In this document: piece by piece, positions 7,161 through 11,133 of the stretch
Position numbering within the stretch: the stretch's first letter is position 1
Layout: each line of letters opens with the position of its first letter
Assembly (NCBI GenBank): GCA_964187785.1
Contig: OZ076409.1
Location: 50,346,001 to 50,410,000 of the forward strand
DNA length: 64,000 nucleotides
DNA from: Amphiscolops sp. MND2022
Taxonomy: Eukaryota
Direction: 5' to 3'
Position numbers and translations under genes: made by a program
The notes under the pieces: generated by a model
Databases searched by the model: none
Told to the model about the DNA's origin: nothing
The model's input: the letters and a program-made list of their open reading frames with translations, nothing else

Positions 7161-10100
7161 ATGTCTTCTTCTCATCGAGTGGACCTTGGTATGCAGAGTG
7201 GCAACGAGACACAGTACGTGTTTTCAGAGGGAGACGTGCATCCAAGTGATGCCGACAATGTTTGTCTGACAGCGGCAGGTGAGTTCATCATTCCCCGATC
7301 CATTAAGCTTTCGCGAATAATACTTTGCATAGTTAGGCCTTTTCCATGCTCGTATCTTCACAGCTTAGATTTTCTGACGCGTCGATGATGGGAATGTGTG
7401 TTCTTTTTAGTTCCTGTTACGACTTCCGTCGTCCCTGCGCCAACTGTTCCCCCTGAGGAAGTCTCTGTTGTGGGTGCTGTTGTTTCTGCGTCGCCTGTAC
7501 TTCCTGTTGAAGTTCCTGCTGCTACCGTTGTCGCTTCTGATCCGCCTGCTCCTACTCTTGGAAATGCTGATGCATCTGCCGGCGTAGCTGCTTCATTGGT
7601 TTGTGCTTCTTCTCCCGTTCATCAAGAGGACTCAGATGTGCCTCTTTCTACATTCCTTGCAAGGCCAGCCAACACTGGGTTCATTTCTCCTCGCGAAGGT
7701 GAGGACGTCTGCCCCCCTGCAGAGAAAATGGGAGAAGCGGACGGGAAAGCTGGTCCAGAGAAAGAAACTGGCAAGAATTCCAAGACTTCTCCATGTTTCT
7801 CGCGATATTTGCCTGATTTTGCCGCAACCTTTGGCATAGGAGAATCGCCTCCTGTTCAAAGTGAGTTTTTCATAGTTTGTTTTCCTTTTGTGAGTGGGGG
7901 GGGGTTTCGAAATTCCATGGGAATGAGGTGGCTTTGTGCTATTGGCGTATTTGGAGTTTGCTCGTTCTTATAGGTGCCTCATCCAAACCTGCTGTGTCCT
8001 CTGGGAAGCGACGTCGCACCGTCACTATGTCCACTGTTGCGCAGTCTCAAACTTTCCAGATTGAAAGTAGTGGGGGTGAGGAGTCGCGTGCCGGAGTCGC
8101 CGCTTATACGTCTCAACAAGCTGCTTTGTTCGGTGAAGCTATTGCCTCTGAGTTGGAGACCCGGACTGTGGAGCCGTTTGTTGCGAGTTAGTAGATCTTT
8201 TTACCTTATCAGTGTTTGTCTATGTCGTGGCAGATGATAGTGAGTTTTTGAGATAGGTTATCTGTTGTAGGTAGTTCAGTTAAGTTGATTGTCTGTATGT
8301 TTGTTGTAGAATTTGAAGAGCTAGTGACACGAGTAGAGACGAGCCTCGAGAATGTCAGTCCGTCACGACGACGATCACGGCCTCAGAATCCGCAGAAACG
8401 TTTGAGGCGCAGCATGGTTAAAGAGCACCCTGCATTTGAGCTATTCGTGAGCGGGTCGAGTTCTGGGGTTGAGACTGCTTTTTTCTGCACCATCTGCCAG
8501 CGGGACGTCTCAATTGCGACCAAGGGTATCCGCGAAATTAGCCGACATTTCTCAAGTGATAAACATTGGGCGCTCGATGTAACTTATCGTGTCCATCAAG
8601 GCTTGCAGGTTTACAACAAGTTGCTAGACCCGATGGAATTGAGCGACGCGCAGACGCGGGATTACTTAGCTCGGCCCTTCAAAGAGAAACCCGAAGGCTT
8701 CAGCTTTCCTGAAGACCTCTTGCCTGCTTGTACCCGGGTAGATTCAAGTGTGCCTCTCATTACAATGATAAACTGTCTGGTGGAGCTTCTACGAAGTGGC
8801 GGTGATTACCTTCTGCTGAGGAAGTTGTGGGGGCATTTCCGAGCTACGCTGGGCACAGATAGTCCTTTGTACAGTTTGACGTGGAGCCGGGGAGAATCTT
8901 TGGTGAGTTTTATTATTATATTTCCTTGACAACCGCATTTTCCTGTTTTTTCTTCCTCTCTTTTGTTTTTTGAAGTCTTCCTCTTTTGTCGGGGTTCATC
9001 ATGGTTGTCTTTGTACTGAGTTGTTTTTGGTATGTTGTAGTCATTGCTGTGCCAAGGCTTGTTCCCCCGTGTTCTCCGTGTGCTGATCGCTCGGATTGGC
9101 GAATTCAAGTGCTACAGTGTTGTCTTCGTGGACCTGAATGGCGGGAAACAGTGTCTTGTGCTGACATGGGAGAAACACGTCATGCTGGAAGTGTGCATCG
9201 ATGTGCAGACGGCAGGCCAGCGCATCCCACTGGCTGAATTGAATTCTCTGTCCTGCATCTTGGGAAGTGTTCCTGGCGGTCAGTTGCCGTTGTCTGTGGA
9301 GGGCGCAAGCCCCTCATTGCTTCGAGTGCTGAGTGATAGTCGTAAAGATGGTCATCAATTTATTCTCAGCCGTAATTTTACTGAGGAAGTTTTTCTCAGT
9401 TGCTATCGGCAGGCCCATCAGGAGGTGTTGGGTATGATGGAAGTCACTGCGATGATCGACTACCTGATGCTGCGCTTGAGAGGTGCTCTGCGAGAACCTT
9501 GGCTCGAAGATGCTGCTGTGCTCCGTCGCTGTGTGGTCGCCGGCCGGGTGTCTTTCAAAGATCTCCGTGATGTCGCCTCTGAGTTGATCCCTGTGTGGAA
9601 TTCTGTGAGGGAGTTCGTCCGCTACACAGGGCCCCGCCACATCAAAATTGAAACAGATATGGTTAGTATTCTTGGTTTCTGTTGGCTCATTTGTGTGATA
9701 ATTTTCTTTTCCTCCTGTTTCGTTTCTTTCTCTTTTCTTTTTCGGAGGGGGGGGGGCGAGATCAGAATGGGCGCAAGTGTACCTTTATTGTTTTGTTGTA
9801 GATGAGAGGCACTGACAGTCAGGTTTATTGCGACAATACGAATCGGCTGCGACAGGGACTCCTTGTGCACATGCTCGACTTTTGTAAGTGGACGTCGTCT
9901 TGTCGTCATTCTTTGTGATTGATGGTTGGTATAAGTAATTGTTGTTTAGATCGTTGTACCTTCAAGAAACAGTTGTCTGGGCGTGAGGACTACGGTTTTC
10001 ACTGCTACATGGAGATTTGTCAGTTTGTGTACTGCTTGCTTTCCCGTACCCGTCAGCTTTCTGAGTTGCCTGATCTTCACGACTGGGAGGCCTATATGGA

Positions 10101-11133
10101 CGTTACGAAAATTGAAAAATTCAGGAAGATTGACACTACTGACTTTTTATTGATTCACGATTTCGGAGAAGAATTGCAGCGAGGGAAGACTGGAGAGATG
10201 CAGGAATTTCGTAATCGCTGTCGGGAATTTATGGATCGTTTGGTGGACGTGCTTCTGGAGTCTAGCCTTGTTTCGTCAGATTTCTTGCAAGGCGTTTATG
10301 CTTTTTGCCCTGAACTTTTGCTTGAAGGCGATGATCGTTATATCTTCCGACTGTTCAGTAAGTTGTTGCGTGTCCTGGAACGCAGCGGTGCTCTAAGCAG
10401 TGAGGAGCCCAAGTCTGGTTCGGAAGAGTTTGTGACTTTTGTTGTAGACGCACGACGCCGTCATGCCGATTCTGAGAGTAGTGCTGAAAAGATTGCAGAT
10501 GTCGTGAGTTATCTCCTCAATGATTATAGTTTCTTGGCACGGAAGGATTTGTGTCGTATTTTGAAGTTATGTTGCTTGGTCATTCGTCGTCCCGCTTCCG
10601 AATATCCTGACGTAAATATCTCTCTGGAAGGTTGTGTCGTGCCTGCTTCTGTCATTGCTTCCTGTTTACGTGGGGTGCAGAGTTACGTTCGAGGTCCTGA
10701 GTTTAAACTGGGGGCTTTTTTCACACTGCATACCATGGATTGTGTTCGCGATTCTGTTGCTGGGGCCCGAGATTTCATGACTGTCGCTTCCAGTTTTGAT
10801 CCATGGATTCGTGTTTGTGTGTTCGTTCGTCACTACAGCGCACTATTTGAGGCTCACATTGCCCGCAAGAAAGATGAGTCGTATCAGCGATTTCGAATTG
10901 CCAATCAACGTGTACATAGTAGTTCTGTTGGTGTTAATGTATTTTCTACGCCGTCCTGTAGTCGTTCTGCAAGTGGAAGCTCGTCAGCTGTTGGGGGTGT
11001 TTCTTGTAAGACGCCCGCTAAACGATCTGTTGTCCAAACGTCAAAAGAAACAAAGAAGAGTGAGTCATCTGCTAAGAGTACGAAGAAGGGGTCAAAGAGA
11101 CAGTCGAGTGGTTCTTCTAGCTCGAAAAAATGA
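7161..11133 (+). CDS. Antisense 7-exon gene inside the Gypsy element, about 1086 aa, with a C2H2 zinc finger
   Basis: Exons 7161-7278, 7411-7860, 7974-8186, 8310-8902, 9041-9661, 9802-9883, 9950-11133. Six GT-AG introns (donors GTGAGT, GTTAGT, GTAAGT), all phases compatible; 3261 nt with no internal stop; motif FFCTICQRDVSIATKGIREISRHFSSDKH. Confidence 0.85.

Follow-up and report, generated by a model that had tools for sequence, protein, structure and literature searches.

How is a gene that is interrupted by six introns kept inside an element that multiplies through reverse transcription? The question is raised by a 64,000-nucleotide stretch of the genome of Amphiscolops sp. MND2022 (contig OZ076409.1, hereafter the window), in which a gene on the plus strand (7161-11133) lies antisense within a Ty3/Gypsy retrotransposon on the minus strand, between the stop of pol (11270) and the 3' long terminal repeat (LTR; 6126). 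Coordinates are those of the 64-kb window, relatives were searched for in the 1.07-Gb genome G000, and L-numbers denote fetched loci. The antisense gene belongs to a Gypsy clade as an integral accessory gene and is carried in essentially all copies. Its introns survive reverse transcription because antisense introns are invisible to the splicing of the genomic RNA.

The spliced frame comprises 3261 nt and encodes 1086 aa without an internal stop. The initial annotation had described seven exons and six GT-AG introns in one frame, placed antisense between pol and the 3' LTR of a Gypsy element; its coordinates and intron phases agree with ours, and the element is delimited at 3618-19797 by LTRs and a target site duplication (TSD). 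Exon 1 (7161..7278) begins with the ATG at 7161, and the low-complexity exon 2 (7411..7860) evolves fast. Exon 3 (7974..8186) has a conserved KRRR basic patch, a possible nuclear localisation signal, and exon 4 (8310..8902) encodes a BED-type CxxC-H-H zinc finger and a helical region. A predicted RNase H-like core followed by the start of a helical insertion occupies exon 5 (9041..9661). Exon 6 (9802..9883) measures 82 nt in 21/21 copies, and exon 7 (9950..11133) specifies an all-helical domain (predicted local distance difference test score, pLDDT, 78) and a disordered S/K tail ending at a TGA stop. The introns (132, 113, 123, 138, 140, and 66 nt; phases 1, 1, 1, 0, 0, 1) are T-rich and read GT[AGT]AGT...TAG, and in this span the gene strand has 11 instances of the donor motif versus 0 on the opposite strand.

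The same architecture is repeated among the relatives. GT..AG is found at the projected sites of introns 3-6 in 20/20 copies, of intron 1 in 12/20 and of intron 2 in 16/20, the misses at the latter two lying in the poorly alignable low-complexity part. Exon 5 is 621 nt long in 19 of the 21 copies and exon 4 either 593 or 596 nt in all 21, while intron sequence drifts and intron lengths differ by non-multiples of three. Exons 4-7 are open in 14/21 copies, nine of which yielded full models of 1073-1102 aa in a constrained search. From these sequence patterns we infer that the six introns would be spliced. G runs are seen in introns 2 and 5 (7890-7905, 9745-9757), in relatives too, and are possible splicing enhancers.

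The distribution of the gene was assessed from both sides. An exon 4 query returned 7,861 first-look candidates in the genome, and the 150 that were scored are 66-100% identical and mostly open. Twenty loci were fetched across this identity range, and twenty more distant ones from 138 P0118 matches. Each of the 20 exon 4-picked loci retains all or most of the seven exons, and 19/20 have pol antisense downstream; among the P0118-picked loci pol adjoins the gene in 20/20, mostly at 68-98% identity, which brings the gene-picked loci with pol alongside to 39/40. Reciprocally, when copies were picked by integrase (the first 19 rows of the integrase match list absent from the gene lists), 19/19 carried the antisense gene, two of them with internal deletions. 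The initial annotation had proposed looking for the gene between the LTRs of siblings, and regarded terminal inverted repeats (TIRs) of its own and absence from siblings as signs of an independent insertion. The siblings carry it. An active hAT transposon would be bounded by TIRs and an 8-bp target duplication, but no inverted repeats with arms on both sides of the gene were detected at 30 nt or more, nor within the longest 25 of the 109 short pairs. LTR pairs are 99.0-99.9% identical, and family sequence makes up roughly 5% of 100 kb (20 random 5-kb stretches, 2/20 with matches; a rough figure). The best P0118 match in G000 is just 38-40%, which makes it probable that another genome holds relatives.

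Several loci depart from the standard layout. Internal gene deletions are found in L135 (G000:C2:15996480-15999979) and L149; the former lacks exons 3-5 through a deletion from intron 2 to intron 5 that shows a 10-bp overlap, the pattern that template switching would leave. L017 (G000:C3:87537038-87547037) has the gene with LTR-like sequence on both sides, together with the second accessory frame described below (ORF3), with no pol within the stretch, and is either a deletion derivative or a nested insertion. L001 (G000:C3:52338860-52348859) has a complete gene preceded by a tandem partial duplicate of exons 1-4. Exon matches about 13.4-14.1 kb apart occur as four consecutive ones in G000:C149:12622-54521 and as pairs on C12, C2, C11, and C7. 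They probably represent head-to-tail arrays sharing LTRs, since the spacing equals the element length minus one LTR.

The gene is under strong purifying selection. The ratio of nonsynonymous to synonymous substitution (dN/dS, by NG86, with dS close to saturation in several pairs) is 0.03-0.08 for the core in divergent pairs and 0.28 in the youngest pair, like pol. Exon 1 gives 0.12-0.17 and exon 2 0.35-0.61, and the opposite strand of the gene gives 1.20. The idea of a selected accessory gene, for which dN/dS across copies had been proposed as a check, is supported by these values and by the 19 integrase-picked siblings.

There is also clear evidence that elements pass the gene among themselves as a module. 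Mosaic elements arise when templates are switched between co-packaged RNAs. Compared within the same pairs of elements, the gene shows dS of 1.2-4.5 versus 0.10-0.42 for pol, the two being equal in the youngest pair, and identity along the element changes block by block in mosaic fashion (LTR/ORF3, gene, integrase tail, and reverse transcriptase, RT). RT and gene trees of 18 copies, which are quick trees with groups named post hoc on data already seen, conflict (approximately unbiased test, AU, p 9e-53 and 9e-41). In 29 copies whose integrase cores are 98-100% alike, 10 types of exon 7 can be told apart, which are 51-85% identical. Template switching is described as an established source of such mosaics (PMC13317346).

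A deeper group of the family carries the gene as a single 861-aa frame, P0201, which is 29% identical over aa 281-1084 of the window protein (E 6e-89) and has 54 matches in G000, with full elements in 6/6 of those fetched. The LTRs of these six elements are about 2.05 kb long and 99.2-99.9% identical, their pol is about 55% identical to that of the window, and 5-bp TSDs are readable. The gene again lies antisense after pol, accompanied by a sense open reading frame (ORF) extending into the 3' LTR. For one of them, four introns at the 5' end give a model of about 1,180 aa without a stop, one of 14 possible chains. The intronless P0201 protein is colinear through junctions 4-6 and hence lends independent support to splices 4-6.

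The protein itself carries a BED-type zinc finger together with a predicted RNase H-like core that lacks invariant catalytic acids. The C2H2 finger of the initial annotation is found as CxxC-x17-H-x5-H at aa 320-347, and its Pro/Ala/Val-rich N-terminus and Ser/Lys-rich tail correspond to a V/S/P/A-rich segment (aa 1-190) and an S/K-rich one (aa 1001-1086). The BED-type signature CX2CXnHX3-5(H/C) (PMC7471704) fits the window protein and most copies, and Pfam zf-BED gave no match despite the finger pattern. The core predicted for exon 5 in a low-confidence model runs three strands, helix, strand, helix, strand. With catalytic positions assigned from this low-confidence model, the strand 1 and strand 4 columns vary across 28 exon-5 rows and 37 intronless rows and an invariant D, D, E triad is not seen; both sets do share a conserved Glu in the helix that follows strand 3.

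The gene is probably of hAT transposase descent. Of the hAT origin suggested initially, the finger signature, the order of strands and helices, and the top Foldseek match, the hAT transposase Hermes, stand in favor; the match is non-significant (E 0.043) and profile searches for a hAT relationship were all negative, with no match to the hATC domain (PF05699) and non-significant hhalign comparisons against 13 hAT frames of the genome. These negative sequence and profile tests, and integrase cores that score as high as Hermes, would suit a gene with the same accessory role taken from the host or from another DDE superfamily (P, MuDR, Transib, CACTA). Such an origin is nevertheless improbable, as the order of BED-type finger, helical region, RNase H core, and long helical insertion fits hAT, a Trp invariant in both alignments (W186, W400) coincides in position with the hAT 'RW' motif (placed by eye), and among 46 gene-picked loci no homologue was found outside LTR elements, except L017 without pol. 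The transposase-like anatomy could also suggest that a single Gypsy copy harbors an independent, nested DNA transposon as a passive passenger. This is scarcely credible for a gene that has no flanking inverted repeats among the pairs listed, lacks invariant catalytic acids, keeps its position across subfamilies whose pol is 55-98% identical, and is under purifying selection while the retroelement copies it. As a description of the present state a nested DNA transposon is refuted; as an origin, such an insertion is still likely.

A second accessory gene, ORF3 (6023..6722, minus strand), runs in the sense direction for about 232 aa into the 3' LTR and has one in-frame stop in the window. Across the family (about 230-280 aa) it is open to at least 200 aa in 32/40 loci, with dN/dS of 0.11-0.18. 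Its product is acidic and S/T/P-rich, and in 28 of the 32 open copies it starts with a hydrophobic-Asp-Ser-acidic motif, which we take to resemble a SUMO-interacting motif (V/I-x-V/I core, then a Ser/acidic run) and regard as putative. SUMO reportedly acts in chromatin silencing guided by PIWI-interacting RNA (piRNA; 10.1101/533091, PMC8131101). ORF3 and the antisense gene diverge across five imperfect repeats (6876..7140, neither strand assigned) with a cAMP response element (CRE)-like TGACGTCA core, a putative bidirectional promoter. The repeats number 2-4 in the shallow clade and 0 by the TGACGTCA pattern in deeper ones. ORF3 reassorts independently of the gene; for example, L010 is 95% identical in ORF3 and 78-85% in the gene, and L005 42-57% and 86-90%, respectively.

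What might such a gene do for its element? A hAT-type cut-and-paste transposase probably inserted backwards into an ancestral element and lost its terminal repeats and catalytic acids, with the zinc finger and scaffold retained. The gene would be transcribed from the internal promoter common to ORF3, and the protein would enter the nucleus, bind element DNA or chromatin, and keep the element expressed despite host silencing, as a trans-activator or counter-silencer, while ORF3 would act on the SUMO-dependent arm of silencing. Old gene types would persist on a homogenised gag-pol either because rare types are favored or because types are freely interchangeable. A nuclear expression factor is the best fit because of the finger and scaffold without catalysis, the basic patch (9/9 full models), the near-universal retention, and the SUMO-like partner. 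The whole, a nuclear trans-activator or anti-silencing factor for its own element with ORF3 on the SUMO arm, is a plausible proposal that stops short of being probable, and its working mode may resemble that of plant VANC or the domesticated hAT protein ZBED1. Three observations weigh against it: no target motif for the protein was found, a 9-mer survey of two elements giving just the CRE-like repeats; these promoter repeats do not track finger type; and CpG is barely depleted.

Dead transposases frequently function as repressors, and the protein or the antisense RNA may instead limit its own family through copy-number control or exclusion, comparable to HTLV-1 HBZ opposing Tax. Antisense transcription over genomic RNA can yield double-stranded RNA (PMC7264820), and the divergent gene types could define exclusion groups. 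Self-restraint is rather unlikely, however, in a family so successful (7,861 first-look candidates, about 5% of random sequence, LTRs 99.0-99.9%), and 0/19 integrase-picked siblings have shed the gene, as a cheat would under a pure repressor; an RNA-only version leaves dN/dS of 0.05 unexplained. The transposase scaffold, the DNA-binding finger, the basic patches, and an integrase C-terminal region that adjoins the gene and is more variable than the integrase core would all suit an integration cofactor, which would bind cDNA ends or integrase and bring the complex to the nucleus or to chosen chromatin. Yet integrase cores that are nearly identical carry freely reassorted gene types, and 26 usable insertion junctions (14/40 flanks gave no LTR end) show no target motif except a weak last-base preference, which leaves a cofactor role doubtful. 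Self-targeted insertion is rejected, with 1/26 junctions in family sequence against a 5% background. Two divergent genes under one promoter, both selected, with old types coexisting, also recall a toxin-antidote pair poisoning any cell or gamete in which the element is absent or silenced. Such addiction is very unlikely, as thousands of copies would make drive pointless and matched pairing is lacking because the antisense gene and ORF3 reassort independently.

Several known systems share part of these features. In HBZ the 3' LTR drives a small bZIP protein, unlike the large transposase-like protein and internal promoter region here. CRE-like motifs within the element are shared with deltaretroviruses. 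HTLV-1 HBZ and HTLV-2 APH-2 are nuclear regulators encoded antisense in the 3' portion of their LTR element, comparable to the regulator proposed here (PMC11963269). Plant Retand TRP28/PF04195, maize Grande gene23, rice RIRE2, and fungal Boty have antisense ORFs after pol that are given as of unknown origin and function (PMC7264820, PMC11963269). The plant ORFs resemble the present gene in position, orientation, presence in nearly all copies, an internal promoter of their own, and a suspected nuclear DNA-binding role (PMC7264820, PMC11963269). Here, by contrast, the host is an animal, the protein has about 1,100 aa, modules are swapped, and six spliceosomal introns are present, the word 'intron' occurring 0 times in the main text of PMC11963269. 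The gene also shows apparent DDE transposase descent, while the plant ORFs are described as without similarity to other transposable elements (PMC7264820), and TRP28 (PF04195) gave no Pfam match in the antisense protein. VANC of Arabidopsis VANDAL (MuDR), a known anti-silencer for which family-specific action is proposed, is also a transposable element accessory protein with fast family-level diversification (PMC6719617, PMC13317346). However, VANC belongs to a DNA transposon, targets DNA methylation, and depends on a tandem motif, whereas here a retrotransposon shows little CpG depletion and no such motif was found; no sequence link was seen, and none was sought. ZBED1/DREF, a domesticated hAT, uses the BED finger and hAT scaffold as a transcription regulator, and ZBED1 is reported to SUMOylate Mi2-alpha, keeping genes active (PMC7471704); these are single-copy host genes, as opposed to a retrotransposon's gene with thousands of copies and no recognisable hATC domain. 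ORF3s of bdelloid rotifer LTR elements are modular family-specific extra genes after pol in animals, but of different protein types (DEDDy exonuclease, GDSL esterase, env-like), with no antisense or intron-bearing one described and 'intron' and 'transposase' at 0 occurrences in the text available of PMC5408684. The present type is absent from the list of acquired domains in the survey of LTR elements in PMC12440569. Within the literature outside Repbase, subscription papers, and supplements, no animal Gypsy element of the same layout was found, as the initial annotation had supposed. The antisense ORF after pol is known from plant and fungal Gypsy, and the animal, intron-bearing, transposase-like version is new.

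The host element is a Ty3/Gypsy LTR retrotransposon by its LTRs, TSD, pol order, and primer binding site (3618..19797, minus strand, as are the parts that follow; 16,180 bp, TSD ATGAC, 5 bp). The 5' LTR (17289..19797) and 3' LTR (3618..6126) each have 2509 bp and TG...CA ends, and are 98.96% identical (26 differing sites). The primer binding site (17276..17288, 13 nt) is complementary to the 3' end of a host tRNA, the pattern occurring 805 times in G000 versus 0 for a control; the tRNA was assigned by eye as Leu(CAA) with an intron, with no ARAGORN call. Its genes form a large tandem array (G000:C8:35.59-35.65 Mb, L152; unit about 296 bp, about 790 pattern matches on one strand). The gag frame (16246..17817; 523 aa stop to stop, with a CCHC knuckle) overlaps pol in the -1 frame, and an A-AAA-AAC heptamer just before the gag stop (16240-16262, minus strand) is presumably a canonical -1 frameshift site. 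The pol frame (11270..16405, 1711 aa) is ordered protease (Pfam positions 215-321), RT (626-791), RNase H (857-989), and integrase (1182-1351). The gag ATG at 17684 places the first ~130 codons inside the 5' LTR (17289-17684), from which the frame reads through the primer binding site; the 3' LTR counterpart (3618-4013) has a stop, and the deep subfamily likewise starts gag within the LTR. No purine-rich run that would mark a polypurine tract precedes the 3' LTR, where the junction ends in CCC and codes for ORF3. At this junction (6110-6145) CCC-TGTCAC is kept in most of the 40 loci and encodes a conserved ORF3 motif. The ends of the element RNA might pair, because 8 nt of the junction are complementary to the primer binding site. 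Beyond the initial annotation, the analysis thus adds the swapping of gene modules, ORF3, subfamilies with an intronless gene, and a gag that starts within the LTR.

Elsewhere in the window, a BEL/Pao-type element (19835-26218; 191-bp LTRs 98% identical, broken frames, DUF1759-type layout) starts 38 bp from the Gypsy 5' LTR, past a TAC microsatellite, and its type points to an animal host. Inverted repeats of 621 nt (27503-28123 and 44388-45008; 99% complementary, 16.3 kb apart) possibly bound a large DNA transposon, and 50600-63000 holds direct repeats of 2.2 kb and 4.7-5.2 kb with short internal inverted repeats.

Copies in this family are young and number in the thousands; it also offers a gene under selection whose origin is probably traceable, and a natural allelic series on a constant backbone, with intron-bearing and intron-poor sister lineages. 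By its probable origin it would be a case of one transposon class domesticating another. It is possible, though we hold this as speculative, that the clade domesticated a DNA-transposon enzyme and paired it with a SUMO-binding protein as a two-gene counter-silencing cassette, whose many ancient versions are kept by frequency-dependent selection and shuffled onto a shared gag-pol backbone. If true, this would be a transposable element-encoded antagonist of animal piRNA/SUMO/H3K9me3 silencing, a class undescribed according to a 2019 review. Whatever the mechanism, a six-intron gene that outlasts reverse transcription and reassorts in the manner of a viral accessory cassette is unusual for an animal LTR element.
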